Below are positions 9,547 to 47,501 of a stretch of DNA of 64,000 bases, one piece after another. The notes below the pieces were generated by a model. That model searched no databases, was not told the DNA's origin, and worked only from the letters and a program-made list of their open reading frames with translations. Location of the stretch: NCBI GenBank assembly GCA_001914235.1, contig MQUF01000003.1, positions 448,225 to 512,224 of the forward strand. Direction: 5' to 3'. The translations under genes and the position numbers were made by a program. How positions within the stretch are numbered: the first letter of the stretch is position 1; each line of letters begins with the position of its first letter. This DNA is from Desulfobulbaceae bacterium DB1. Its GTDB lineage: Bacteria > Desulfobacterota > Desulfobulbia > Desulfobulbales > SURF-16.

Positions 9547-10578
9547 ATGAATTTCCCGAGATCATTGCTTCTTTTGCTGTCAGGCTGCCTGTTGTGGGCC
9601 TGCGCGCCGCATTTCACAATTCCGGGGAAAACAATGACGGAACCGCGACTGACAGACACCCTTTTCATCAGCTTCGACGGCACCGAACTGCCGCTCAAAA
9701 CCTGGCTGCCGTCCGCTTCTCCCAAGGCAATCATGGTCGCCCTGCACGGCTACAATGATTATTCCAATTTTATCAAGGATGCCGCCGCGTTTTTCAATGA
9801 CAGGGGTATCGGTGTTTATGCTTATGACCAGCGGGGATTCGGCAGCGCTCCCCACCCCGGCAAATGGCACGGCCACGAAGCCATGGTCCGGGATCTCCGA
9901 ACCATTCTCCAACTCGCCCAAAATCGCCATCCGGATATCCCGCTCTATCTGCTTGGCGACAGCATGGGCGGCGCGCTGATCATGGCGGCGGACAGACCGG
10001 AAAATCCCCTGCCCGGGGACGGTGTGATCCTGGTGGCCCCGGCGGTCTGGTCGCGTGACACCATGCCCTTTTATCAACGCTGGGCGCTGTGGCTGGGGGT
10101 CCGGATCATGCCCTGGCTGCGGTTGTCAGGAAAAGGGCTCGACATCACTCCTTCCGACAACAAGGAAATGCTCCTCGCCCTGGGCCGCGATCCGCTGGTC
10201 ATCAAGGAGTCACGCATCGATGCGATATACGGCCTGGCGAATCTGATGGACGCGGCTTACGCGGCAGCATCCCGGTTTGACAGGAAGGTTCTTTTTCTTT
10301 ATGGCGCCAGGGATGAGATCATCCCGCCAAAACCGATGACGGATGTTTTCTCCCAAAGGCTGCACGGGCGTTTTGCAAACCGTCAGCGCCTCCTAGTGTA
10401 CCCAAAGGGCTACCACATGCTGCTGCGGGATCTGCAGGCGGAGGTTGTCTGGAACGACATCCTCTGCTGGCTGGGTTCCCCTGGTGAGACGTTCCCTTCG
10501 GTCCGGGAAAAGTCGGCCGTCGAAATAACCAATGAAAACGATTTGCAGGATGTCCTGAACCGGAAAAAAGCAAACTGA
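9547..10578 (+). CDS. Alpha/beta hydrolase (lysophospholipase / monoacylglycerol lipase-like) lipoprotein
   Basis: Lipobox LLLLSGC, an HG oxyanion motif (VALHGYNDY) and a nucleophile elbow GDSMGG. Confidence 0.85.
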   Translation: MNFPRSLLLLLSGCLLWACAPHFTIPGKTMTEPRLTDTLFISFDGTELPLKTWLPSASPKAIMVALHGYNDYSNFIKDAAAFFNDRGIGVYAYDQRGFGSAPHPGKWHGHEAMVRDLRTILQLAQNRHPDIPLYLLGDSMGGALIMAADRPENPLPGDGVILVAPAVWSRDTMPFYQRWALWLGVRIMPWLRLSGKGLDITPSDNKEMLLALGRDPLVIKESRIDAIYGLANLMDAAYAAASRFDRKVLFLYGARDEIIPPKPMTDVFSQRLHGRFANRQRLLVYPKGYHMLLRDLQAEVVWNDILCWLGSPGETFPSVREKSAVEITNENDLQDVLNRKKAN

Positions 10579-32223: not shown

Positions 32224-32814
32224 ATGCTGGAAACCGGAATTTTACTCCTCCTGCTTGCCTCAGCCGTTCTCATGGTTATCGTCTTCTACAACCGTCTGAT
32301 AACCTTACGAAACCGCTACAAAAACGCATTTTCCCAGATCGACGTGCAACTGCAGCGCCGTTATGACCTGATCCCCAATCTGGTCGAAACCGCCAAGGTC
32401 TACATGAAGCATGAACGAGAAACGCTGGAGGCTGTCATTACCGCCCGCAACAATGCCTCCTCGGCCGTTCGCCGGGCATCTGCCGACCCGGCCGACGCCA
32501 CGTCAATGCAGGGCCTGTCTTCCGCCGACAACCTGCTGACCGGAGCGTTGAGCAGGCTTTTTGCCCTGGTGGAATCCTATCCCGACCTCAAGGCCAACCA
32601 GAACATGATGCAGCTTCATGAAGAGCTCAGCTCCACGGAAAACAGGGTTGCCTTTGCCCGTCAGGCATTCAACGATTCGGTCATGCAGTACAACACGGCG
32701 CGAGAACAGATTCCGGTGAATATCATTGCCATCCTGTTCGGCTTTGCCGAAGCGCCGCTGTTTGCAGCAGATGAGCCGGAAACCAGGAAAGCCCCGAAAG
32801 TCTCCTTCACCTGA
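32224..32814 (+). CDS. lemA: LemA family protein
   Basis: AAAAGGAGA RBS and one N-terminal TM. YNRLITLRNRYKNAFSQIDVQLQRRYDLIPNLVETAK is the LemA signature. Confidence 0.9.
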   Translation: MLETGILLLLLASAVLMVIVFYNRLITLRNRYKNAFSQIDVQLQRRYDLIPNLVETAKVYMKHERETLEAVITARNNASSAVRRASADPADATSMQGLSSADNLLTGALSRLFALVESYPDLKANQNMMQLHEELSSTENRVAFARQAFNDSVMQYNTAREQIPVNIIAILFGFAEAPLFAADEPETRKAPKVSFT

Positions 32815-32833
32815 GGCAAACCGATTCACGTCC

Positions 32834-34822
32834 ATGCTTGATTTTTTTGAACGCCAGGAGTCCGCGCGCCGCAATACCTTTCTTCTGCTTTTTCTTTTCT
32901 TTCTGGCAGTGGTGGTGATCGTCGGCGTCGTTCACTGGAGCGTCGCGCTTTTTCTGCTCTTTACCCCGCGCTATGCCATGACCGCACAGTCATTCGGCAG
33001 CCTGTTGACTGACCCGGACATCTCTCTTGTCACCATACCATCCGTCCTGCTCCTGATCTTTATCGGCAATGCCTATAAGTTCTTCACCCTGCGCCGGGGT
33101 GGAAGCGATATCGCCCTGCGCCTCGGCGGCCGGCTCGTCCTGCCGGACACAAGGGATCAACGGGAACAACGGTTGCTGCATGTGGTCGAGGAAATGGCCC
33201 TGGCCTCAGGACTTCCGGTTCCCCTTGTTTATGTGCTTGACCGGGAAAGCGGCATCAATGCCTTTGCCGCGGGCTTTACTCCGGCCGATGCGGTCATTGC
33301 CGTCACCGACGGCGCGCTGGCCCTGCTCAACCGCGATGAACTGCAAGGGGTCGTGGCCCATGAATTCAGCCATATCCGCAACGGCGACATGCTGCTCAAT
33401 ATTCGACTCATCGGCATCGTGCACGGCATCCTGCTTCTTCATCTTGCCGGCGGGTTTATCCTGCGGAGCTTTGAAACAAACCTTTTTAACAAACGAAGGC
33501 AAAACGGGGCAATCATTATGGCGGTCGGGTTTCTCCTCTATGCTCTCGGCTTCATCGGCGGGCTGCTGGCCAAACTGATCAAAATGGCCGTATCACGCCA
33601 GCGGGAATACCTGAGCGATGCCTCGGCGGTCCAGTTTACCAGAAATCCCCTCGGCCTTGCCTCGGCGCTGAAAAAGATCGGCGGCCTGACGCTTGGATCA
33701 AACCTGCGCCATCCCTTGGCTGAAGAGGCAAGCCACATGTTTTTCGGCAACGGCCTGGGCGACAGCCTGCTCGATATTTTCTCCACCCACCCGCCTCTTG
33801 CCAAAAGAATCCTTTTGCTTGATCCCGCCTTTGACGGCACATTTCCCCGAGTCAAACGGATTGTCGAGGAGATACCCGTTGCCGTGAAAAGGGCCGCGCC
33901 TCCGCCGCCGATGGCGCAGTCGGCAATTGCGTCCGCGGGAAACCTTGCCGGGGCCGCGGTTCCCGCCAATGTTTCAGCCGCGGCGGAACCGCATTCTCAA
34001 TCGCCAAACCACACCCCGGAACAGGTGATCGACCATCACATGCGGGAACGACGAAAAATGCTTGCGACCATACCGGAAATTGTCCGCAAGGCCTGCCGTG
34101 ACAACTACGGTGCCCAGGCAGTGGTGCTGAACCTCCTCTTCAGCCCGGAAGAAACGGTGCGGACTGCGCAATGGGAACTCGTCAGAAACTTTGCCGACCT
34201 TAAACTCGTCAAGGAAACGGAAAGACTCTTCCCCCTATTAACCACTGTTTCCAGATCAACACGGCTGCCGCTGATCGATCTCTCGCTGCCTGCCCTCAGA
34301 CTGCTCGACGAAAAGCAATACCGGGAATTCAGAAAACTTGAAAAGCACCTTGCCGACGCCGACCAGAAAACCGATCTTTTTGAATACATGCTGCATCGTG
34401 TCCTGGTGAGCCACCTGGAGCAGAATTTCGCCGCGCACCAGCCAAATGATGGGCAAAACGAACCAAAGGGGAATTTTGCCTGGGCATGCTCGATCGTCTT
34501 TACCCTCCTGGCGAAACACAGTTATAATAATGACGGGCAAGAAGCACGGGCCGCCTTTGACAGGACCGTATCTCGCATTGCCGCAGGCAAGCGGGACGGA
34601 ATTATTTTTCTGGCCGATCCCCGCTTGCATCCCCTCCGGGATTTTGATCGTGCCCTGCGGATCCTGGCGGAAACGGGACTAAGCAGCCGAAAAAATCTGC
34701 TTGCCGCCTGCCTGGAATGTATCACCAGGGACGGCCGAATCAGTTCGCAAGAGGCGGAACTGTTTCGCGCCATCGGCGAAGGACTGCATTGTCCGATACC
34801 AGCGCAACTCATTGCCTGCTGA
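32834..34822 (+). CDS. M48-family Zn metallopeptidase (HtpX-like) with a long C-terminal extension
   Basis: N-terminal TM segments and HEFSHIRNGD (HExxH). The ~330-aa C-terminal region is of unknown function. It directly follows lemA. Confidence 0.85.
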   Translation: MLDFFERQESARRNTFLLLFLFFLAVVVIVGVVHWSVALFLLFTPRYAMTAQSFGSLLTDPDISLVTIPSVLLLIFIGNAYKFFTLRRGGSDIALRLGGRLVLPDTRDQREQRLLHVVEEMALASGLPVPLVYVLDRESGINAFAAGFTPADAVIAVTDGALALLNRDELQGVVAHEFSHIRNGDMLLNIRLIGIVHGILLLHLAGGFILRSFETNLFNKRRQNGAIIMAVGFLLYALGFIGGLLAKLIKMAVSRQREYLSDASAVQFTRNPLGLASALKKIGGLTLGSNLRHPLAEEASHMFFGNGLGDSLLDIFSTHPPLAKRILLLDPAFDGTFPRVKRIVEEIPVAVKRAAPPPPMAQSAIASAGNLAGAAVPANVSAAAEPHSQSPNHTPEQVIDHHMRERRKMLATIPEIVRKACRDNYGAQAVVLNLLFSPEETVRTAQWELVRNFADLKLVKETERLFPLLTTVSRSTRLPLIDLSLPALRLLDEKQYREFRKLEKHLADADQKTDLFEYMLHRVLVSHLEQNFAAHQPNDGQNEPKGNFAWACSIVFTLLAKHSYNNDGQEARAAFDRTVSRIAAGKRDGIIFLADPRLHPLRDFDRALRILAETGLSSRKNLLAACLECITRDGRISSQEAELFRAIGEGLHCPIPAQLIAC

Positions 34823-37265: not shown

Positions 37266-38864
37266 ATGAAAAAGAAACTGAGCAGCTATATTGCCGGCGC
37301 GTTTATCATCAATGTTTTCGCCATCCTCAGTGTAGGCGGCATCTGTACCTTGATGGTCAAAGACATGGTGACGAATATCGCCCGTCTGGAAAAGGAAAGC
37401 GGGAATGTCTCCACAATTTACCGACTGAACAACAAAATCCAGCATGCCGTCTTCATGGTTCACAATTCCATCGTTGATTATGATGAAACAGCGGAAAATG
37501 AAATCATGGCCACCATGGCCAAGGCGGAAAAAGACCTGCTCGACTATATGGGAAGTGAAAAGAGCGGGCACAATCTTCATACGCAGGAGGAATTCATTCT
37601 CCTGGAGAAACTTCACGACAATATCAGCGGCATCAAAACCCTTCTGCCCGAAATTTACCGCAACCTCACCCTTGCCGAGCCCCAGGATGAGAACGGGTTC
37701 AAACTGCTGGAAAAATATGCCTTTCACGCCCGGAACCTGACCCAGTCCATCAACGATGTTCATTTCAAAGTCGTGTCAGGCCTGGTCAAGGAATCTTACA
37801 ACAAGATGTTTTTCATCCTGCTGCTCTACCTGACCTGTTCGGTGGTGGGGATCCTCGCCTCCTGCGTCGGCTATGTGGTGTTAAGCCGTCATACGATCAA
37901 GCCGATCATCAATCTTGCCACCGCGACCCGCAGAATTTCCGGCGGCGATCTCGGTATCCGGGTTGCAACCGATTCCGAAACCGAAATCGGCACTCTGTAT
38001 CAATCATTCAATGCAATGACGGAAAAGCTGCAGGAACATCAGCGAAAACGGGAAGATTTCAACCGGATGCTGGAAAAACTGGTAAAGGAAAGGACCCGGG
38101 AACTGCTCGAATCAAATGAGTCTTTGTCCCGTACCCAGTCGGAACTGGTCAGGATGGAAAAAATCGCCACCCTGGGCCAGATCGCCACCTCGGTCAACCA
38201 CGAAATCAAAACACCGCTGAATGTCCTGTACATGAATCTGCAACTGCTCATTCGCAAGATAAACCAGTGCCCCATGGAAGGGGACTCGCTGAAACAGGGC
38301 ATGCTCGGTCTGACCGAGATCATCAATAATGAAATCGGCAGAATCAATGAAATAATTGAAGAATTCGTCAAATATGCCCGTTTCCCCGCCCCGAAAATCA
38401 AAGAAAGCGATATCAACAAAATACTTACCGACATCGCGGAGATGGTCACCCAGAATGCACGGGAGGCGGACATCAGCATCGATCTTCAGCTTGATGACAA
38501 TTTACAGACCTGCCCGGTTGATGCTAAGATGATGATTCAGGCTCTGCTCAATCTCTGCATGAATGCCATCCAGGCCATGCCCTACGGCGGATCCTTGAAA
38601 ATTGAAAGCAAAAAACTGGAATCATGCACGAAAATATCGATCATCGATACCGGACAGGGCATTGAAGCGGCCGACCTTGACCGCATCTTCGATCCCTTTT
38701 TCACCAAAAAAGACGGAGGCCTGGGTTTTGGGCTTGCAATTGTCCAGCGAATCATCGAAGATCACCGTGGTTCCATTTCCTGCCGGAGCGAGGTGGAAAA
38801 AGGGACCGAATTCACCATCATTCTTCCGACAACGACAAAGGCAATCTGTCAGGATATCATATAA
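37266..38864 (+). CDS. Sensor histidine kinase (periplasmic sensor, HAMP, HisKA, HATPase_c)
   Basis: Two TM segments flank a ~150-aa loop, followed by a HAMP domain. H-box SVNHEIKTPLN, and N/G boxes (LNLCMNAIQA, DTGQGI, GGLGFGL). Confidence 0.9.
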   Translation: MKKKLSSYIAGAFIINVFAILSVGGICTLMVKDMVTNIARLEKESGNVSTIYRLNNKIQHAVFMVHNSIVDYDETAENEIMATMAKAEKDLLDYMGSEKSGHNLHTQEEFILLEKLHDNISGIKTLLPEIYRNLTLAEPQDENGFKLLEKYAFHARNLTQSINDVHFKVVSGLVKESYNKMFFILLLYLTCSVVGILASCVGYVVLSRHTIKPIINLATATRRISGGDLGIRVATDSETEIGTLYQSFNAMTEKLQEHQRKREDFNRMLEKLVKERTRELLESNESLSRTQSELVRMEKIATLGQIATSVNHEIKTPLNVLYMNLQLLIRKINQCPMEGDSLKQGMLGLTEIINNEIGRINEIIEEFVKYARFPAPKIKESDINKILTDIAEMVTQNAREADISIDLQLDDNLQTCPVDAKMMIQALLNLCMNAIQAMPYGGSLKIESKKLESCTKISIIDTGQGIEAADLDRIFDPFFTKKDGGLGFGLAIVQRIIEDHRGSISCRSEVEKGTEFTIILPTTTKAICQDII

Positions 38865-38873
38865 GGTGCACCC

Positions 38874-40214
38874 ATGCCGCAGACCACCATACTGATTGTC
38901 GATGATGACAAAATGACACGGCAGACGCTTTCCCTGGCTCTTGAGGATCATTATCAGACCATGACGGCCAAGGACGGGAAAACCGCCCTGGAAACGCTCA
39001 GGGAGCAGGAAATCGACATCGTCCTTTCCGATCTTTTCATGCCGGGGATGAACGGCATTGAGCTGCTTGAGCAAATCAATCAGTTGCCGGAAAAGCCGCC
39101 GGTCATTTTCATAACCGGCCAGGGCACGGTCGAAACCGCCGTGCAGGCCATGAAACTGGGCGCCTATGACTATGTCACCAAGCCGATCAACATCGACCGC
39201 CTGTGTCTTATCATCGAAAAAACCCTGGAAAATAAACGACTCAAGGAAGAAAACATCCTGCTGAAGGAAAAGATAAAGGAAAACTATCCCGACCTTTCCC
39301 TTATCGGCGATTCCCCGGTCATGCAAAAGGTCAAGGCACTGGCCCATCAGGTGGCCTCCACCACCGCAACCGTGCTCATTGAAGGGGAAAGCGGCACCGG
39401 CAAGGAACTGATCACCAACATCATCCACTACAACAGCCCGGTGGCCCACGGTCCGTTCATCAAAGTCAACTGCGCGGCCTTTGCCGAAGGCGTGCTGGAA
39501 TCGGAACTTTTCGGTCATGAAAAAGGTGCCTTTACCGGCGCCGTGGCCGCGAAGAAAGGCCGTTTCGAGCTGGCCGACAACGGCACCCTTTTTCTCGATG
39601 AAATCGGAGAAATGCCCCAGTCGATCCAGGTCAAGCTGCTGCGCTTTCTCCAGGAGCAGACCTTTGAGCGGGTCGGCGGCACAAAAACCCTGAAGGTGCA
39701 AGTGCGGATTATCTCCGCCACCAACAGAAACCTGACGGAAATGATCAAGGAAGGGACCTTCCGGGAAGACCTTTATTACCGCCTCCGGGTGGTCAAGATC
39801 GAGATGCCCCCTTTACGGGACAGACGGGAAGACATTCCTCCCCTGGTGGACAATTTTCTGAAGAAATTCTCCCACCGGCACGGCAAACCGATTCAGCGGG
39901 TGTCGAACGAGGTTATGAACCTGATCAAACAGTATAACTGGCCGGGCAACATTCGGGAATTGATGAACTGTATAGAGAGCTCGGTGGTCATGGCGCGGGG
40001 CGACACGCTGACCATCGATTCCATACCGGAATACCTGACCTATACCGAAAATGGTTCGGAACCGGAAAGCAAGGAAGGGGCGCTGCATGAAATGGAGCGT
40101 CAGCTTATCACCGATGTGCTCAACAAAACGGCAGGCGACAAGGTGCGGGCGGCGAAAATTCTCGGCATCGGCCTGCGCACCCTGTACCGCAAACTGGACA
40201 GATGGGAGATGTGA
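38874..40214 (+). CDS. Sigma54-dependent response regulator (NtrC family enhancer-binding protein)
   Basis: Receiver domain (ILIVDDD..DIVLSDLFMPGMNG). AAA+ domain with GESGTGKE and the GAFTGA loop. C-terminal Fis-type HTH (AAKILGIGLRTLYRKL). Confidence 0.95.
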   Translation: MPQTTILIVDDDKMTRQTLSLALEDHYQTMTAKDGKTALETLREQEIDIVLSDLFMPGMNGIELLEQINQLPEKPPVIFITGQGTVETAVQAMKLGAYDYVTKPINIDRLCLIIEKTLENKRLKEENILLKEKIKENYPDLSLIGDSPVMQKVKALAHQVASTTATVLIEGESGTGKELITNIIHYNSPVAHGPFIKVNCAAFAEGVLESELFGHEKGAFTGAVAAKKGRFELADNGTLFLDEIGEMPQSIQVKLLRFLQEQTFERVGGTKTLKVQVRIISATNRNLTEMIKEGTFREDLYYRLRVVKIEMPPLRDRREDIPPLVDNFLKKFSHRHGKPIQRVSNEVMNLIKQYNWPGNIRELMNCIESSVVMARGDTLTIDSIPEYLTYTENGSEPESKEGALHEMERQLITDVLNKTAGDKVRAAKILGIGLRTLYRKLDRWEM

Positions 40215-40251: not shown

Positions 40252-42141
40252 TCATCCATTTTTCTCCGCCGGGGAAAACAACGCGTGCGCGGCCTTGATT
40301 GCGGCGCAAGCCGGCCCGTCGTCAGGCGCGAGGGCGGAATCCCCGGCTATCCTCTTTTTCGAGGTGCATTCATAGACGATCTCCATTTCCTCCCGATCCA
40401 GGGTCTCATTAAGCAGCAGCATATCGGCCAGATAAATGACAAAGTCCTTTTCCGCTGTTAATATTTCCCGCGCCTCCTGGTAGCAGGATTCAACCAGTCT
40501 TTTCACCTCCCGGTCTATCCGCTGTCCCGTTTCTTCACTGTAGGCGGACCTGTTCAGCTGTTCCCCGAGAAAGCCCCCATCGTTCTGCAGATAGGCCAGC
40601 GGTCCGATTGCCTCACTCATGCCCCACTGGCACACCATCTTGGTGGCAAGACTGATGGCCTGACGGAAATCGTCCTCCGCACCGGTGGTCTGCTGTGACA
40701 GGCAAATCTCCTCCGCCACACGACCGCCCATGAGAATCTTGATGCGGCTGAGCAGGTATTCCCTTGAATAGGCGTGGCGATCAGTCAACGGCAATTGCTG
40801 GGTATGACCAAGCGCCTTTCCCCTGGGGATGATGGTAATCTTATGGACAGGATCGGTTTCCGGCAGGTGGCGGGCGAGCACCGCATGGCCTGATTCATGG
40901 TAGGCCATGGTCTTGCGATCCTTCTCGCTGATGACAAGCCCTTTTCGTTCAACCCCCATCAGGATCCGGTCCTTGGCCTTTTCCATATGCTCCGGCCGGA
41001 TGGCGCTGTCGCCCATGCGTCCGGCAATAAGAGCCGCTTCGTTCATCAGGCTTGCAAGCTCGGCGCCGGTGAATCCCGGGGTGCTGCGCGCCACATTTTC
41101 AAGATCCATGTTCTCGGCAAGCGCCAGTTTCTGGGCATAAACCCGGAGAATCTGCAGCCTGCCTTTGACATCGGGTGGGAGAATACTGATCTGCCGGTCA
41201 AAACGGCCCGGCCGCAGCAGGGCCGGATCAAGGATATCCGGCCGGTTGGTGGCGGCGAGAATAATGATCGTCTCTTCAGTGGAAAAACCATCCATTTCAA
41301 CCAGCAGGGCGTTGAGCGTCTGGCCGCGCTCATCCTGCCCGCCGGTCATGCTGCCCGCACCTCGGTGCCCTCCCACCGCATCGATCTCATCAATAAAAAC
41401 AATGCAGGGCGTATTTTTTTTCGCCTCCTTGAAGAGATCCCGCACCCTGGAGGCGCCGACGCCGACAAACATCTCGACAAAATCCGAACCGCTGATGGAA
41501 AAAAAGGGGACGCCGGATTCTCCGGCGATGGCGCGGGCCAGCAACGTCTTGCCTGTGCCCGGCGGGCCCTGAAACAGGATGCCGCGCGGGATGACCGCCC
41601 CGAGTTTGCTGTATTTTTTGGGCCGCTGAAGAAAATCAATCACCTCCAGCAATTCCTCCTTGGCCTCCGGTACCCCGGCGACATCACGAAACGTCACCTG
41701 TTTATACTTTTTCTGGGGAGTAAAATGGGCAAGCTTCTCCCTGCCGAAATCCGCCTCGTTTTCCCCGGTCCCATGATTGCGCAGCAGGGAAAACCAGACA
41801 ATGAGAATAAGCATCATCGGCACGGCGAGTTCGGCAACCTGCCACAGCATTGCCGCCTTTTTCTCCGCCGGCAGAACAACAACATTCTTGGCAAGCAGCC
41901 TGGGCAAGAGGGAAGGGACATCCGGGGCAAACGAGGAAAACTCGCGGCCAAATGTATCGGTAAGGGAAATTTGCCCCTGATCAAGGCGGACCTCGGCTAT
42001 TTCGCCTCTTTCCAGGGTCTCAAGGAATTCGTTGTAACTGATTGGCGGAAGACGGTTTTCAATAGTCCAGAAGACGGCAACGATCCCGCCGACGACAATC
42101 AAGGCCACAACGGCAAACAACGTACGAATAAAAAGGGTCAA
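40252..42141 (-). CDS. ftsH: ATP-dependent zinc metalloprotease FtsH
   Basis: GPPGTGKT Walker A, the SRH region and HESGHA zinc site. The track ORF uses a TTG start with GGAG upstream. Confidence 0.93.
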
Positions 42142-42297
42142 CTCGGCAGACTCCGTTAAGGTGGATTGACGGTCACGACATCATCGACACAAAAATATAC
42201 TATATAATGGCAACGTATTGCTTGCAAAAGTTATTCCGTAAATCTCCGCCCGCCGAACAGCCCAAACAAGGGCATCCAGCCCTTTCCGGAATCTCCC

Positions 42298-42334
42298 TTT
42301 TGTCAAAATGACAAAACAGCATGCCATTTTGACA
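42298..42334. promoter_or_regulatory. Candidate enhancer (UAS): overlapping dyads TTTTGTCA-AAA-TGACAAAA and TGTCAAAAT-N16-ATTTTGACA
   Basis: A perfect 8-3-8 palindrome at 42298-42316. A further inverted 9-mer lies at 42326-42334. The centre is about 85 nt upstream of the sigma54-type promoter. Confidence 0.45.
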
Positions 42335-42388
42335 ACAAAAAAGACCGCCATTTCTCACAACATGTCGGAACAACACAAAAAATACCTT

Positions 42389-42404
42389 TGGCACGATAAT
42401 GGCA
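42389..42404 (+). promoter_or_regulatory. Candidate sigma54 (-24/-12) promoter
   Basis: TGGCACGATAATGGCA has a perfect -24 TGGCAC and correct GG-N10-GC spacing. The -12 element is TGGCA rather than TTGCA. It lies about 72 nt upstream of ATG 42477. Confidence 0.55.
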
Positions 42405-42476
42405 ATAAAACACAAGCAAGAGACACAACAAACAAATAATCCAAAACAGAAAGCATCAGCACCATGGAGGAAGCAA

Positions 42477-42710
42477 ATGAAAGCAACGAACCCCGAAGCC
42501 AAGGCCCAGGTAAAAAAACGCTCCACCGTTTCAAGTTCGGAAAACATCCAGGCCAAGGTTGAAGTTTCCAAGGGCGTTGTCATTGCGCTGGGCACAGCTC
42601 CGGCGCTGATCGGCATCTGGGCGGCCGCCTGTTTTGTCGGAGGTCTCGTTGCAAGCGGCGGTCCCATCGGCATGGTGAAAAGCTGGTTTTCGGCAATAAG
42701 CGGCATGTAA
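42477..42710 (+). CDS. Small (77-aa) C-terminally membrane-anchored protein, paralogue 1
   Basis: GGAGGAAGCAA precedes the ATG. A polar N-terminus is followed by ALIGIWAAACFVGGLVASG..WFSAISGM. Confidence 0.6.
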   Translation: MKATNPEAKAQVKKRSTVSSSENIQAKVEVSKGVVIALGTAPALIGIWAAACFVGGLVASGGPIGMVKSWFSAISGM

Positions 42711-42771
42711 GGATCCTTAAGCAATTTATTCCGAATGTAATCGACGACAACTGATGCAACGGAGGTGCCCC

Positions 42772-42996
42772 ATGAAAGAAGCAACATTGACAAAAAAACA
42801 AAACAAGGCACGGACAGGTGAACATATTCAGGCACAGACGGGTCTTGACACGTTTGCCACAGGCACCATCTCCGTCATGGGCGGCATTTCCGCCATCATC
42901 GGCATCTGGGCTGCAGCCTGCTTCATCGGCGGTCTTCTCAGCAGCGGCCCGGTTGAATTGGCTTACGGATGGTTCAGGGCGATAACCGGCCTGTAA
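42772..42996 (+). CDS. Small (74-aa) C-terminally membrane-anchored protein, paralogue 2
   Basis: GGAGGTGCCCC precedes the ATG. AIIGIWAAACFIGGLLSSG..WFRAITGL shares an almost identical core with the preceding gene. Confidence 0.6.
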   Translation: MKEATLTKKQNKARTGEHIQAQTGLDTFATGTISVMGGISAIIGIWAAACFIGGLLSSGPVELAYGWFRAITGL

Positions 42997-43163
42997 AACC
43001 CGCCCCGAGAGTGAGCATGCTGCACAGACAAACAATCCCTCCCCCTGAGTCCCGCCAACGAATGGACAAGAAAAGCACGCGGCAGAGCCGCGTGCTTTTC
43101 CCTGTTTGCGACGCAAATCACCTTCGTCTCAGCCGCCACTGTTGAGCCGAGGAAACCAAAGAA

Positions 43164-44627
43164 ATGAGCAAATCGTCTCCCAGCTTCATGAAAGCGGCGG
43201 TCAATCGAATTTCCCGCAGCAAACTTTCCGTTATCGGCGCGGTTCTCCTCATCTTCGTCAGCCCGATTCTCAGCCTCTCCGTTTTTCTCGACATTCAGGG
43301 CATCGTCAATAATCCCTATTTCGGCTTTCTTATTTATCTTGTTCTCGGACCGCTGTTTCTTTTAGGCATTATCCTGCTTTTTATCGGCATCATTACCTCC
43401 AGGGGCAAGGAGGACATCGGCCTCTTCACCTTTGAATACATCGAAGAACAACTCGCCCGTCCCGGCCGTTACAGCCGTATCCGGCGGCATCTTTACTTCA
43501 GCGTCACCCTCACCCTGGTGACCCTGTTCCTGGTCGCCCTTGTTTCCTATACCGGCTTTCACTATACGGAATCAAATGCATTCTGCGGCCAGTTCTGCCA
43601 TACGGTCATGGAGCCGGCTTTCACCTCGCACTCCAATTCCCCGCACTCTCGGATTTCCTGCGTCAATTGCCATATGGGCAAAGGTTCCCGGTGGATGACC
43701 AAAACCAAGTTCTCCGGTGTCAAGCAGCTTTTTGCCGTCATGTTCGACACCTATCACCGCCCCATCCGTCAGCCCATCGACACCCTGCGCCCGACACGGG
43801 CTACCTGTGAGGAATGTCACCGTCCAGACATGTTTCACGGCGACAAACTCTATATCAAGGACCGTTTTTTACCTGACAAAGACAACACCCACGTCCAGAC
43901 GGCGCTGCTTATGCGGATAGGATCGGGCGGCTACCTCGGCAGAAAAGCCCACGGTATCCACTGGCATGTTTCCGAGGACAACCAGGTTTTCTACAAATAC
44001 AGCGATCTGCATCAGGAGGAAATCGCCCAGGTCTGGCTGCAGAACGGAAACAAGAAAACCATTTACAGCAAAACCGCCTTGCAGCAGCAGGTACCGGCAA
44101 CCCTGTTGAGTGGCACTGTCCGGAAAATGGACTGCATGGACTGCCATAACCGGCCCACCCACGTTTTTCTCAGCGCGGAAGAGGCATTGGACGAAAAAAT
44201 TCTCATGGGGGTTATTCCCCGCACCATCCCCTTTATCAAGAAAAACGGGGTTGAAATCGTCAGCCGGCACTATGATTCGGTGGAACAGGCACTGGAAGCC
44301 ATTTCACAAGATCTGTTCCAATGGTACGAAAAGAATTATCCGGATTTCACCTCAAGCAAAAAACATCTGCTTGACAAGGCGGTCGCTGGAATCCAGCAGG
44401 CCTACCGGGAAAACGTCTTTCCCGATATGGAGGTGGGCTGGAATACCTATGACAATTTTATCGGCCACAAGGACGGAAACGGCTGTTTCCGTTGTCACAA
44501 GGGAGAGCACGTCAGTGAAGAGGGCAAGGTGATCAGCCATGATTGCGACAGTTGCCATGTGATTCTGGCGGAAAACGAACCCCAGCCCGATGTTCTGCGC
44601 ATTCTCAAGGAAGAAGCCGCCAAGTAA
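43164..44627 (+). CDS. Membrane-anchored multihaem c-type cytochrome (NapC/NirT-like N-terminal module; 5 CXXCH plus 1 CX3CH)
   Basis: N-terminal TM segments. Haem sites are CGQFCH (CX3CH), CVNCH, CEECH, CMDCH, CFRCH and CDSCH. Confidence 0.85.
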   Translation: MSKSSPSFMKAAVNRISRSKLSVIGAVLLIFVSPILSLSVFLDIQGIVNNPYFGFLIYLVLGPLFLLGIILLFIGIITSRGKEDIGLFTFEYIEEQLARPGRYSRIRRHLYFSVTLTLVTLFLVALVSYTGFHYTESNAFCGQFCHTVMEPAFTSHSNSPHSRISCVNCHMGKGSRWMTKTKFSGVKQLFAVMFDTYHRPIRQPIDTLRPTRATCEECHRPDMFHGDKLYIKDRFLPDKDNTHVQTALLMRIGSGGYLGRKAHGIHWHVSEDNQVFYKYSDLHQEEIAQVWLQNGNKKTIYSKTALQQQVPATLLSGTVRKMDCMDCHNRPTHVFLSAEEALDEKILMGVIPRTIPFIKKNGVEIVSRHYDSVEQALEAISQDLFQWYEKNYPDFTSSKKHLLDKAVAGIQQAYRENVFPDMEVGWNTYDNFIGHKDGNGCFRCHKGEHVSEEGKVISHDCDSCHVILAENEPQPDVLRILKEEAAK

Positions 44628-44681: not shown

Positions 44682-46124
44682 ATGAAAGATGATGAGCCAA
44701 ATAACGACCAGGAAAACGACTATCCAAAAAATTATGACCACGAGGGAGCCTTTGACCGCCTGCTGAAGGGGCTATGGCGCTCACCCCTGGGCGTTTTCGG
44801 TGTGGCGCTGACCACTATCAGCATCACCCTGATGATGATCGGCACCATCATCGACATGACCGGCCTGATCGACAACCCATACGCATCCCTGGTGACATAC
44901 ACCATTCTGCCGGTGGGCATGCTGATAGGCCTTGCCCTGATCCCCCTTGCCGCTTTCCTGCGCAGACGGAAATGGCATAAATACGGTGTCGACCGCGACC
45001 ATCTGCAGCTCAACCTGAGTAACCCCAAACACCGTCTGGCCCTGATCGGCTTCATCGTTCTTTCCGTGACCAACGTGGCTATTCTCGCGGTCATCGGTTA
45101 TGAAGGCTATCATTTCACCGATTCGTCCTATTTCTGCGGTGTCGTCTGCCACCAGGTGATGGAACCGGAATATGTGGCCTATAAGCGTTCCCCCCACTCC
45201 AGGGTGGCCTGCGTCGAATGTCACATCGGACCGGGAGCGGAATGGTACGCCCGCGCCAAGCTTTCCGGATTGCGCCAGGTGGCGGCCGTTATGCGCAATA
45301 CCTACAGCCGGCCCATTCCCGCCCCGGTCCATGAGCTGCGTCCGGCCAGGGATACCTGCGAACAGTGCCACTGGCCGGATAAATTTCACGGCAAAAGGAT
45401 AAAAAGATTTGTTTCCTTCAGCAACAATGACCAAACAAATCCGGAAATCACCGAAGTTGCCCTGCATATCGGCGGCCACAACCCCGAAACGAACGTCTTT
45501 GAAGGAATCCACTGGCATGTCAGCCATGAGGTGGAAGTAAGCTATCTGGCGGCGGACGAAAAACGCACGCAAATCGCCAAGGTCAGGGTGAAACGACCGG
45601 ACGGGACCGCGGATGAATTTATCAAGGGCGACATTGAAGTCCCGGCAACCGAGGAAGAAAACTGGCGGGTAATGGACTGCATCGACTGCCATAACCGCCC
45701 CACCCACATTTACAATATGCCGGAAGAAAGGGTTGATTTCGGTCTGCTCAGTAAAAAAATCAACCCTGAAATCCCCGGCATCCGCGAGGACAGCCTCAAG
45801 GTAATCACCAAGGAGTATGCATCCCGCGAGGAGGCAAAGGCTTCCATGACCAACGACCTGATTTCCCTGCAAAAACAACGGGATGCCGGGATGGCGGAAA
45901 CAAACAAAAATGATCTGCTCAAGGCCGGCGATTTCCTGCTGGAAGCATACCTCGGCAACGTCTGGCCGGAAATGAAGGTTGCCTGGGGTACCTATCGCGA
46001 TCATCTCGGCCACCAATGGGCTGATGACGGATACGGCTGCTGGCGCTGCCACGACGAAGAGCACGTCAACAGCGCAGGGGAAACCATTTCCCAGGATTGC
46101 TCCATCTGCCATGATGAACCCTGA
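44682..46124 (+). CDS. Membrane-anchored multihaem c-type cytochrome, paralogue of the preceding gene
   Basis: Same architecture and motif order: CGVVCH (CX3CH), CVECH, CEQCH, CIDCH, CWRCH, CSICH. Shared blocks include SPHSR..C.ECH.G, MDC.DCHNRPTH and GC.RCH. Confidence 0.85.
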   Translation: MKDDEPNNDQENDYPKNYDHEGAFDRLLKGLWRSPLGVFGVALTTISITLMMIGTIIDMTGLIDNPYASLVTYTILPVGMLIGLALIPLAAFLRRRKWHKYGVDRDHLQLNLSNPKHRLALIGFIVLSVTNVAILAVIGYEGYHFTDSSYFCGVVCHQVMEPEYVAYKRSPHSRVACVECHIGPGAEWYARAKLSGLRQVAAVMRNTYSRPIPAPVHELRPARDTCEQCHWPDKFHGKRIKRFVSFSNNDQTNPEITEVALHIGGHNPETNVFEGIHWHVSHEVEVSYLAADEKRTQIAKVRVKRPDGTADEFIKGDIEVPATEEENWRVMDCIDCHNRPTHIYNMPEERVDFGLLSKKINPEIPGIREDSLKVITKEYASREEAKASMTNDLISLQKQRDAGMAETNKNDLLKAGDFLLEAYLGNVWPEMKVAWGTYRDHLGHQWADDGYGCWRCHDEEHVNSAGETISQDCSICHDEP

Positions 46125-46326: not shown

Positions 46327-46394
46327 TCGGCCCAGGCCGGCAAAACCCAACCCTTTTCGTGACGCCAGTGCACTCAGAAACAGACGCAAATCAC

Positions 46395-47501
46395 ATGAAT
46401 GGGCGCAGACGCGCCTGGCTGCTGCAACTTTACCGGGAACACCGGCAGATCAGCCTGCTGCACCGGCTGCATCTTTCGACGCCGATCATTGAAATCAGCG
46501 CGGCCTCGACATACTGGGGAAGCTGGCAGTCGGCGGGCGGCGCCATCCGGATCTCTTCCCGGCTCATCGAACTCCACACCTGGGACGTGGTGATCAATGT
46601 CCTCAAACACGAGATGGCCCATCAGGCGGTAAGCGAGCTTTTCCACAGCCGGGAAGGCCACGGCGACCTTTTTGCCAGGGCCTGCGACATGCTGGGAGTC
46701 CCGGACGGTTTCAGGGAAGCCGGCGGCGATCTGCCCCGTTCCCTGCCGACCATCCACGAAAAAGCACAAAAGAGTCCGCAACACGCCCTGCTGCTGAAAA
46801 TAGAAAAAATCCTGGCCCTGGCCCGCTCAAGCAATGAACATGAAGCGCAGCTCGCCATGGAAAAGGCCAACCAGCTCATCACCCGCTACAACCTTGCCCG
46901 GGTCACCACGGAAAATGACACCGGTTACGACTGCATCATCATCAATCACAAGAAGAAACGGATCGAAAATTACCAGCGGAGAATCTGCGCCGTCTTGAGC
47001 CGCCATTTCTTTGTCCGTATCGTGCTGGCCGATCTTTATGATCCGGATCTCTGCTGCAGCCACAAAACCATCGAAATCCTGGGCGCCCGGGAAAACGTGC
47101 TGACCGCCGAATACGTCTATCATTTTCTTCTTTCCCGCATGGAGTCCTTCTGGGAAGAGTTCCGGCGCCGCAACCAAACCGGCGGCAACAGGAAACGATC
47201 CTACTGCCTGGGACTGCTGGATGGATTTGACGCGAAACTTACGGCCGGGGAGCAGGAAAACGCCGTTACTCCAAAGGCAGCCGCCGGTCAAAACATTTCC
47301 GCCCTGGTCTGCGAAGCCGACAGAGGGCTGAGCCTTTTCATCCGCAGGCGCCATCCCCGCCTGGCGCGCAGGAGCCATGCCGGGGCCGGCGTTTCCCGCC
47401 GGGAGTATGAAGCCGGCAGGCAGGACGGTGACAAACTGGTGCTGCACAAGGTGATGGAAAACCATGACGGCAACCGGGGCAAAATGCTGCCTTGTCGGTA
47501 A
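46395..47501 (+). CDS. SprT-like Zn-metalloprotease domain fused to a DUF2786-like domain
   Basis: Contains HEMAH. The later segment LLLKIEKILALARSSNEHEAQLAMEKANQLITRYNL is typical of DUF2786. Confidence 0.7.
   Translation: MNGRRRAWLLQLYREHRQISLLHRLHLSTPIIEISAASTYWGSWQSAGGAIRISSRLIELHTWDVVINVLKHEMAHQAVSELFHSREGHGDLFARACDMLGVPDGFREAGGDLPRSLPTIHEKAQKSPQHALLLKIEKILALARSSNEHEAQLAMEKANQLITRYNLARVTTENDTGYDCIIINHKKKRIENYQRRICAVLSRHFFVRIVLADLYDPDLCCSHKTIEILGARENVLTAEYVYHFLLSRMESFWEEFRRRNQTGGNRKRSYCLGLLDGFDAKLTAGEQENAVTPKAAAGQNISALVCEADRGLSLFIRRRHPRLARRSHAGAGVSRREYEAGRQDGDKLVLHKVMENHDGNRGKMLPCR

Follow-up and report, generated by a model that had tools for sequence, protein, structure and literature searches.

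In a 64,000-nucleotide stretch of contig MQUF01000003.1 of Desulfobulbaceae bacterium DB1 (assembly GCA_001914235.1, forward-strand positions 448,225 to 512,224; this whole stretch is hereafter termed the window, and its own numbering is used for all of its features), two adjacent genes, smallA and smallB, encode small paralogous membrane proteins. In silico, both were shown to be real conserved coding genes under purifying selection, and it is well supported that they represent an undescribed family of small membrane proteins, which forms part of a conserved module together with a dedicated FtsH-type protease and a quinol dehydrogenase. A two-component system encoded nearby has these small genes as its principal predicted direct target.

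Two small genes and their family

Both smallA (42477..42710) and smallB (42772..42996) are plus-strand open reading frames (ORFs) that start with ATG and encode 77 and 74 amino acids (aa), respectively, each preceded by a GGAGG ribosome-binding site (42466-42470 and 42761-42765). The original prediction had described them as tandem paralogues of ~75 aa with strong GGAGG sites and a near-identical core, located ahead of two paralogous cytochromes, and this description proved accurate: the coordinates are exact, the two products share 42% identity over 69 residues (BLASTP, E 2e-18), the membrane-core segments ALIGIWAAACFVGGLVASG and AIIGIWAAACFIGGLLSSG are found in smallA and smallB as quoted, and two ~35% identical cytochrome genes (43164..44627 and 44682..46124) do follow. 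Common to both proteins are the core IGIWAAACF(V/I)GGL and the end WFxAIxG(M/L), the individual C-termini being SWFSAISGM and GWFRAITGL. The protein encoded by 42477-42707 (smallA) is 100% identical to BM485_04645, which is annotated as 'hypothetical protein'. Longer ORFs starting at 42399 and 42754 were judged to be upstream extensions of smallA and smallB, because orthologues begin with MK(A/G/E/D). Two minus-strand ORFs (42200..42835, 211 aa, and 42580..43116, 178 aa) are without support and most likely shadows of the conserved plus-strand genes, and an Rfam scan of 42100-43200 gave no match.

Among eleven syntenic loci, the median ratio of nonsynonymous to synonymous substitution rates (dN/dS) of orthologues is 0.19 for smallA and 0.205 for smallB at a dS of ~1; the proposed dN/dS check, here run on orthologues, thus gave ~0.2 for both genes. 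Purifying selection acts along the entire length of both proteins, with values of 0.145 (smallA) and 0.13 (smallB) in the C-terminal core as compared to 0.35 and 0.33 in the N-terminus. The suggested purifying selection on the membrane core is therefore borne out, whereas the Cys that had been counted as part of it is only 80% conserved. smallA and smallB form two separate orthologous groups, the pair is kept in L001-L011 (L numbers denote collected loci), and the ribosome-binding sites ahead of the small genes are conserved across loci.

An exhaustive profile search over 1.84 billion representatives, with clusters formed at 50% identity, retrieved 267 family clusters at E<=1e-3 and 53 at E<=1e-10, whose members are nearly all 65-80 aa long; a word-indexed search returned 10 relatives. 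So far, the family is known almost only from Desulfobulbales-like genomes, including that of the cultured Desulfocapsa sulfexigens DSM 10523 (UWK_00529), and its members are annotated as 'hypothetical' in the source records. The assertion that no described family can be assigned agrees with all comparisons made: smallA and smallB gave no match at E<=0.1 in Pfam and NCBIfam scans, a Pfam scan of 126 family members returned only scattered chance-level matches (e. g., Podoplanin, a holin family), the best hit of a profile search against PDB sequences had an E of 0.58, and a Foldseek search of an AlphaFold2 (AF2) model against the PDB yielded 0 matches. Likewise, no description of this small-protein family or its module was found in the searchable literature. 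Homologues hence exist, GGAGG translation signals are present, and no known unrelated family was matched, i. e., none of the outcomes that had been named as contradicting the prediction occurred.

The signature of the family, derived from 372 non-identical members, comprises G46 (94%), W48 (95%), G62 (94%), P63 (78%), A73 (95%), and G76 (98%), with small residues at G55/G56 and the protein ending one residue past G76. In particular, a small-residue face formed by G46/A50/G55/G56 is conserved. At the position of C52, Cys is found in 80% of these sequences, Ser in 10%, and Ala in 4%; the replacement by Ser or Ala in ~14% of the members argues against an obligatory cofactor-binding thiol, and an obligatory haem- or metal-binding Cys was ruled out since only 80% of the members keep it. 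The AF2 model of smallA, built on a 126-sequence alignment, features a disordered stretch (residues 1-20), a long helix (21-60) that includes the transmembrane (TM) core, a GG turn, and a short amphipathic helix (63-75), with a predicted local distance difference test (pLDDT) score of 80-93 over the core and <50 for residues 10-22. The hydrophobic segment spans residues 33-62 of 77, and the N-terminus is net basic (7 K+R versus 3 D+E). With a single TM segment that ends <=~30 residues from the C-terminus and an N-terminal region assigned to the cytoplasm by the positive-inside rule only, smallA falls into the tail-anchored class. A topology with the N-terminus inside, the C-terminus outside, and the short Trp/Phe helix in the periplasm is thus likely in the model, the orientation being taken from the same rule.

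A predicted sigma-54 circuit

The two-component system is encoded on the plus strand upstream of the small genes and resembles the ZraS/ZraR and AtoS/AtoC types. Its sensor histidine kinase (37266..38864) has two TM-like segments (residues 5-32 and 178-207) that frame a ~145-aa periplasmic domain, as well as HAMP, HisKA, and HATPase_c domains (Pfam); the best NCBIfam matches are of the AtoS/ZraS type and lie below the cut-off. The kinase is syntenic in L001-L008 and others. The sigma-54 response regulator (38874..40214) is composed of a receiver, an AAA+ Sigma54_activat domain (E 9e-73) with a GAFTGA loop, and a Fis-type helix-turn-helix (HTH), and its orthologues (70-90% identity) adjoin small arrays also in loci that lack both FtsH and cytochrome (L016, L078).

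Ahead of smallA, ~73 nt from its start codon, lies a predicted sigma-54-type promoter, TGGCACGATAATGGCA (42389..42404, plus strand), with GG at 42390-91 and GC at 42402-03 in a GG-N10-GC arrangement. The element fits the Desulfovibrio sigma-54 consensus tGGcacg / tTGCt (PMC4641369). Further upstream on the same strand, the inverted repeat UAS1 (TGTCA-AAA-TGACA, 42301..42313) constitutes a predicted enhancer-binding-protein site and is accompanied by UAS2 (TGCCA-TTT-TGACA, 42322..42334) at a distance of 21 bp, i. e., two helical turns; regulator binding sites are typically found within ~100 nt of the promoter (PMC4641369).

This arrangement recurs throughout the family. Within 280 nt upstream of the small genes, the sigma-54 motif is present in 53 of 68 dereplicated loci as compared to ~1.7 expected (background of 0.091 matches per kb per strand), and paired TG[TC]CA-N3-TG[AG]CA repeats, 21 bp apart, occupy positions -88/-67 relative to the sigma-54 element in 31 of 52 loci (background rate of the inverted repeat, 0.12 per kb). 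The repeat pair is also kept at arrays that have no regulator, FtsH, or cytochrome nearby (L018, L020, L053, L082, L101), and 50 of the 55 composite repeat-plus-sigma-54 sites in 2.2 Mb of collected sequence are located directly upstream of a small gene. Conversely, where the regulator lacks its AAA+ domain (L035, L055, L067), the promoter motif is missing too. In silico, the locus hence shows the makings of a sigma-54/enhancer-binding regulon (-24 GG/-12 GC spacing, upstream sites, and a GAFTGA regulator), and the promoter, the 21-bp-spaced repeats, and the adjacent regulator together identify the small genes as the principal predicted direct target of the two-component system. In the metagenome-assembled genome (MAG) JAHJIY01 (L015-L018), the sigma-54 elements of L016 and L018 are identical (TGGCACGGTTCTGGCA), and in L015 and L017 contig ends truncate the region upstream; only L016 adjoins kinase and regulator, and no array of this MAG stands beside FtsH or a cytochrome.

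Between smallB and the first cytochrome gene, a terminator- or attenuator-like hairpin (43070..43100, plus strand) with a 14-bp stem and a 3-nt loop is followed by a U-rich tail, UUUUCCCUGUUUG. It was missed by a simple terminator scan and by a hairpin script and was detected by direct folding (dG -28.5 kcal/mol, z -4.66; none of 200 shuffled sequences folds equally well), and comparable hairpins with T-rich tails are present behind the arrays of many other loci. As a separate sigma-54 promoter precedes the small genes and the hairpin precedes the cytochromes, the former are probably expressed in excess of the latter. The gap of ~60 nt between hairpin and cytochrome gene contains neither a sigma-54 motif nor an inverted-repeat site, so that the two cytochrome genes would most simply be transcribed by read-through at a lower level. 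Additionally, L005 (~9750) and L038 (~460, minus strand) contain, on the opposite strand, a second sigma-54-like element that shares the repeat pair with the first and faces the divergent FtsH gene, for which reason FtsH may also be enhancer-dependent in this lineage. In the window, no sigma-54-like element toward FtsH was seen, and only a weak sigma-70-like match lies ahead of it.

Genomic company and quinone modules

The neighbourhood of the family was compared among 117 sources, which comprise, besides the window, 22 loci from genomes, 80 from metagenomes, and 14 contigs retrieved through protein identity; a further locus, L117, was collected later and analysed separately. The small genes occur mostly in tandem, with one copy in 28 dereplicated loci, two in 35, three in 10, four in 2, and five in 1. 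Within 4 kb, they are accompanied by FtsH (43 loci), the sigma-54 regulator (39), an ImcH-like cytochrome (34), and the kinase (30), and further by a 99-101-aa protein termed par99 (16), a 304-aa membrane protein (11), and NrfC-like and NrfD-like proteins (6 each). In the 28 dereplicated loci that are flanked by >=3 kb on each side, the same distance covers FtsH in 16, the sigma-54 regulator in 16, and an ImcH-like cytochrome in 13. Gene order is variable and neighbour identities go down to ~50%, the commonest order being kinase, regulator, small gene(s), FtsH, and cytochrome(s), while FtsH is inverted upstream in the lineage of the window. Linkage to cytochromes recurs in lineages whose own proteins share only 32-55% identity with smallA. 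A functional link of the small genes to the cytochromes is likely, and the small genes are tied no less closely to FtsH and the sigma-54 system.

The FtsH-family membrane AAA+ zinc protease of the window (40252..42141, minus strand) is divergent from the small genes, scores 734 bits against TIGR01241 (cut-off 600), and keeps Walker A/B, the second region of homology, and HESGH. FtsH is the most frequent neighbour of the family overall, usually located directly downstream of the small genes at 100-300 bp.

The two plus-strand cytochrome genes downstream of the hairpin, cyt1 (43164..44627, 487 aa) and cyt2 (44682..46124, 480 aa), encode paralogous ImcH-type multihaem cytochromes of the same architecture, with three N-terminal TM segments (TM-like residues 18-48, 51-82, and 108-133 in cyt1), one CX3CH motif (CGQFCH at residue 141 in cyt1; residue 152 in cyt2), and five CX2CH motifs each. 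They show homology of the NapC/NirT/NrfH type (Cytochrom_NNT PF03264, E 1e-7; TIGR03153, E 1e-11). ImcH homologues are characterized by three TM motifs, an atypical CX3CH next to the membrane domain, and 5-9 CX2CH motifs (PMC6295460), all of which are found in cyt1 and cyt2. Judged by predicted architecture, their closest known family is ImcH of Geobacter sulfurreducens (GSU3259), which is described as a menaquinol-oxidising inner-membrane cytochrome (bioRxiv 10.1101/2023.05.03.539133). A second pair of cyt1-like and cyt2-like genes (67% and 79% identity) was observed in L006 (295-3247), ~3 kb upstream of the kinase; this locus retains the usual cytochrome pair after the small genes besides, and the fetched stretch ends beside the second pair.

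In Desulfobulbus, Desulfocapsa, and related lineages, the ImcH-like cytochromes beside the family are replaced by a module of an Hmc-like cytochrome, HmcB, and HmcC. For example, L117 of Desulfobulbus rhabdoformis reads sigma-54 regulator, insertion sequence (IS) element, FtsH, c7-like cytochrome, a 4Fe-4S protein with a twin-arginine translocation (Tat) signal, a 417-aa and a 476-aa protein, small (65 aa), par99, small, and par99, where the 417-aa protein has its best NCBIfam match in HmcC (E 4e-105, below the cut-off). Pairs resembling NrfC/NrfD also precede small and par99 genes in L021, L022, L089, L090, and L094. It is only these other members (L117, L021, L022, L089, L090, L094) that follow HmcB/HmcC-like genes, and the small genes of the window adjoin ImcH-type cytochromes rather than such NrfC/NrfD-type genes. 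The family, FtsH, and the sigma-54 regulator accordingly accompany two non-homologous periplasm-facing quinone modules, FtsH being linked in both module types, and the presence of the family beside the Hmc-like module implies that its link is to quinone-interacting modules generally and not to these cytochromes in particular.

The par99 genes directly follow a small-family gene (L023:381-680 and 10237-10536; L117:9001-9303 and 10189-10491; L034:8248-8547), and 1,750 matches at E<=0.01 were obtained among 8,000 candidates scored; they stem from Desulfobulbus, Desulfocapsa, and a MAG of the Geobacteraceae. In its N-terminal half, par99 is homologous to the core of smallA and smallB (hhalign probability 95.9%, E 5.7e-9), and this half is followed by a highly conserved C-terminal extension, HTLVDYYTHIKGIEYLICVAFFVAFPVFFKYVNK. 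Precomputed matches to PF28260 ('DVU_0533') are carried by par99 proteins, DVU0533 being Hmc operon protein 4, the hydrophobic peptide HmcD. Because primer-deduced fragments of DVU0533 (YTLHEFM, YVGYWLF) resemble the extension and not the shared core, the HmcD-like part of par99 is probably its C-terminal extension. The AF2 model of par99, of low confidence (pLDDT 58), has helices at 8-35, 40-51, and 68-89, which would fit a family core extended by one more TM helix. Two par99 records at JGI are named 'ABC-type bacteriocin exporter', a mis-annotation.

Several further neighbours were observed in individual lineages. A variant module (L035, L055, L060, L066, L067; e. g., L035:1597-9532) has a regulator that consists of a receiver and HTH_8 without AAA+, no sigma-54 motif, a NosL-like gene between regulator and small gene, and a MerR-type gene downstream; a Tat molybdopterin oxidoreductase (~750 aa) and a TorD-like chaperone are encoded upstream on the other strand, which hints that the ImcH-like cytochrome of this variant may feed a periplasmic molybdoenzyme. 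In L032 (1296-4008), genes for a CzcB/CusB-type resistance-nodulation-division (RND) adaptor and an outer-membrane efflux protein adjoin the kinase, the module there comprising three small genes, two cytochromes, and FtsH. Along with the NosL and MerR-type neighbours elsewhere, these efflux genes hint at a metal-related signal. The two-TM protein of ~304 aa (L024:12574-13485, L073:12620-13534, and 9 other loci) ends in a HisKA remnant without an ATPase domain. In loci with a PAS regulator, it is positioned between FtsH and cytochrome, and in L089 and L090 it precedes small and par99. In the window, a protein with SprT-like, DUF2786, and DUF7168 matches is encoded directly after cyt2 (46359-47501); its synteny is confined to the closest relatives (L001-L008, L010, L011, L038), and it probably lies outside the module. 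A second membrane protease near the locus, of 698 aa, is encoded at 32726-34819, a few kb ahead of the kinase; it has a peptidase M48 domain and a weak 'Sensor' match.

Possible roles and known relatives

As to their function, we tentatively put forward that smallA and smallB may be inducible, abundant accessory or assembly partners of periplasm-facing quinol dehydrogenase modules, a reading that we prefer but regard as possible rather than established. A periplasmic signal would be sensed by the kinase and lead to activation of the sigma-54 regulator, upon which the smallA and smallB peptides would be made in large amounts. Each peptide would keep its basic, disordered N-terminus of ~30 residues in the cytoplasm, span the membrane with its Gly/Ala-rich helix, and place its Trp/Phe amphipathic helix in the periplasm. 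The peptides could then pack, probably as A/B hetero-oligomers, on the membrane domain of the co-induced quinol dehydrogenase and serve as non-catalytic accessory or assembly partners, in a role like that of HmcD in Hmc, and the co-encoded FtsH would clear unassembled or surplus components. The original prediction had gone further in proposing cognate small subunits or assembly factors of the two adjacent cytochromes. The recurrent linkage to cytochromes in distant lineages sustains this idea in part, but the counts do not match, FtsH and the regulator are the commoner neighbours, and 8 of the 28 well-flanked loci are unlinked. One-to-one cognate pairing with cyt1 and cyt2 was ruled out by the varying ratios of small genes to cytochromes, which are 1:2 in L012/L013, 2:1 in L024, L073, and L076, 3:2 in L032, and 2:2 in the window.

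A number of observations weigh against a partnership with quinol dehydrogenases altogether. In the 8 unlinked loci, cytochrome, FtsH, and regulator are all absent within 4 kb, so that these arrays lie at a distance from quinone modules and FtsH alike. The copy number of the small genes (1-5) does not follow that of the cytochromes, and the MAG JAHJIY01 alone has at least four separate arrays with nine small genes. The separate promoter and terminator imply expression in excess, which is unusual for a stoichiometric subunit, and FtsH is a closer neighbour than the cytochrome, which suits an FtsH-centred explanation equally well. In addition, the precomputed Pfam field is empty for smallA and for close and distant family members alike, with no PF28260; since the HmcD-like match probably resides in the extension that smallA and smallB lack, these are themselves probably not homologues of HmcD. 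Isolated ImcH of G. sulfurreducens interacts with quinones, and the available part of the respective report describes no small partner (bioRxiv 10.1101/2023.05.03.539133).

An FtsH-centred explanation would make the peptides substrates, adaptors, or modulators of the co-encoded FtsH paralogue, with the disordered cytoplasmic N-terminus of ~30 residues as a handle by which they compete for or recruit the protease and thereby tune the turnover of the inducible quinol dehydrogenase or of other membrane proteins. YccA, small proteins of the MgtR/MgtS type, and SpoVM provide analogues with FtsH in other bacteria. The leading position of FtsH among the neighbours (43 loci, mostly 100-300 bp downstream of the array), the persistence of this link in both ImcH-like and Hmc-like modules, the intact catalytic motifs and above-cut-off equivalog score of the FtsH in the window, and an N-terminus that is predicted to be disordered (pLDDT <50 for residues 10-22) and evolves faster than the core all speak in its favour. 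Nevertheless, we consider it rather unlikely: free arrays without FtsH within 8-10 kb exist (L018, L020, L028, L030, L082, L101), constraint is strongest on the membrane core and periplasmic helix and not on the cytoplasmic tail that would bind FtsH, and the fusion with an HmcD-like segment in par99 favours redox complexes over a protease.

It is also unlikely that the peptides are autonomous effectors of envelope or membrane stress, in which case FtsH and the quinol dehydrogenase would serve the same response side by side and not as physical partners. Here, the two-component system would sense an insult to periplasm or membrane (a metal, an oxidant, or redox imbalance), and the abundant peptides, as its main output, would keep the membrane stable, re-seal it, or exert feedback on the kinase, with PspB/PspG, LiaI, and MgrB as analogues. 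That the small genes are almost the sole local carriers of the composite repeat-plus-sigma-54 site fits this explanation, as do the ZraS/ZraR- and AtoS/AtoC-like kinase and regulator, loci that hold only the regulator pair and the array (L016, L072, L078), and tandem amplification (2-5 copies, several arrays per genome) along with a terminator, which suggest a need for bulk protein. The metal-related neighbours, i. e., CzcB/OEP efflux (L032), NosL (L035), and MerR-type regulators (L024, L035), point in the same direction, yet they are confined to a minority of lineages. Moreover, the family does not resemble PspB, PspG, or any stress family in Pfam (no Psp model matched smallA or smallB at E<=0.1 or any of the 126 members at E<=1), and this explanation would reduce both its recurrent linkage to two non-homologous quinone modules and the fusion with an HmcD-like part to coincidence. 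Exported or toxic peptides, finally, whether precursors of double-glycine bacteriocins or ribosomally synthesised and post-translationally modified peptides (RiPPs), type I toxins, or holin-like or pilin-like subunits, are very improbable and essentially excluded. The proteins are indeed small, tandem, and hydrophobic, have a GG motif at 61-62, and gave weak holin-family Pfam matches in 3 of 126 members (best E 0.0095). However, the conserved part is a hydrophobic core spanning the GG and not a leader, with conservation peaking across and after it; no peptidase-ABC exporter, maturase, or immunity gene is found among the recurrent neighbours, and no antitoxin or antisense RNA family was detected by the Rfam scan. 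There is neither a class III signal nor an N-terminal pilin helix, and sigma-54 control, deep synteny with respiratory genes, and full-length purifying selection argue against this group as a whole. A type IV pilin in particular was rejected because the hydrophobic helix is C-terminal and the N-terminus a polar stretch of 30 residues; the single pilin match among the 126 members, at chance level (E 0.075), is to a type IV secretion pilin family that differs from type IV pilins.

The three main models, i. e., partners of a quinone module, FtsH-related factors, and stress effectors, overlap. Conceivably, though this is rather doubtful, the locus could form the core of a hitherto unrecognised, inducible peptide-plus-protease switch by which Desulfobulbales set the composition of their respiratory chain, and not merely encode passive subunits. 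The primary output of kinase and sigma-54 regulator would then be a flood of tail-anchored peptides that, together with the dedicated FtsH, install, protect, or remove ImcH-type or Hmc-type quinol dehydrogenases, and the remodelling would affect the menaquinol-oxidising branch of the chain.

The Desulfobulbales include sulfur disproportionators, sulfide oxidisers, and relatives of cable bacteria, and little is known of how they link their menaquinone pool to electron carriers in the periplasm and outside the cell. As kinds, both small accessory peptides of respiratory complexes and small envelope proteins under sigma-54 control were known before, whereas the widespread, unannotated protein family, its predicted circuit of kinase, regulator, repeats, and promoter, and the triple linkage are new. 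They offer a testable handle on the induction of ImcH-type and Hmc-type modules, on the role of HmcD, and on how small proteins and FtsH shape respiratory complexes, for which cultured hosts such as Desulfocapsa sulfexigens DSM 10523 and Desulfobulbus rhabdoformis exist.

With regard to known systems, cyt1 and cyt2 share with ImcH the three N-terminal TM helices, the CX3CH by the membrane domain, the CX2CH motifs, and the NapC/NirT/NrfH-like homology, but have five CX2CH motifs and not six as in GSU3259 (within the reported range of 5-9), and they differ in being tandem paralogues behind a sigma-54-driven small array and beside FtsH. The ImcH literature, in the parts considered here, mentions no small-protein partner, adjacent FtsH, or sigma-54 control. 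Like HmcD (DVU0533), smallA and smallB are small hydrophobic membrane peptides encoded with a periplasm-facing quinone-interacting redox module; unlike HmcD, they carry no precomputed PF28260 match, align with the N-terminal half of par99, and are found with an ImcH-type cytochrome instead of Hmc. CydX/CydS of cytochrome bd and PetG/L/M/N of the b6f complex are small single-TM accessory subunits that lack a cofactor motif, are encoded with their complex, and pack by small-residue faces. smallA and smallB resemble them in size, single TM helix, absence of a cofactor motif, and small-residue face, but show no match in sequence or fold and stand apart by their own enhancer-dependent promoter, terminator, tandem copies, and many unlinked arrays.

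On the regulatory side, the sigma-54 two-component regulator DVU0621/DVU0622 of Desulfovibrio vulgaris drives nrfHA, which includes a membrane cytochrome of the NapC/NirT family (PMC4641369). In contrast to that system, the first genes transcribed here would be those of the small proteins and not of the cytochrome, and there is no NrfA-type catalytic partner. PspF with pspABCDE/pspG, ZraSR with zraP, and LiaRS with liaIH are sigma-54 or two-component systems with outputs in envelope stress. The present locus resembles them in having a dedicated sensor-regulator pair, with an NtrC/ZraR/AtoC-type regulator, and small envelope proteins as the main predicted local target; unlike the Psp, ZraP, and Lia proteins, to which it has no homology, the smallA/smallB family is linked to FtsH and quinol dehydrogenases.

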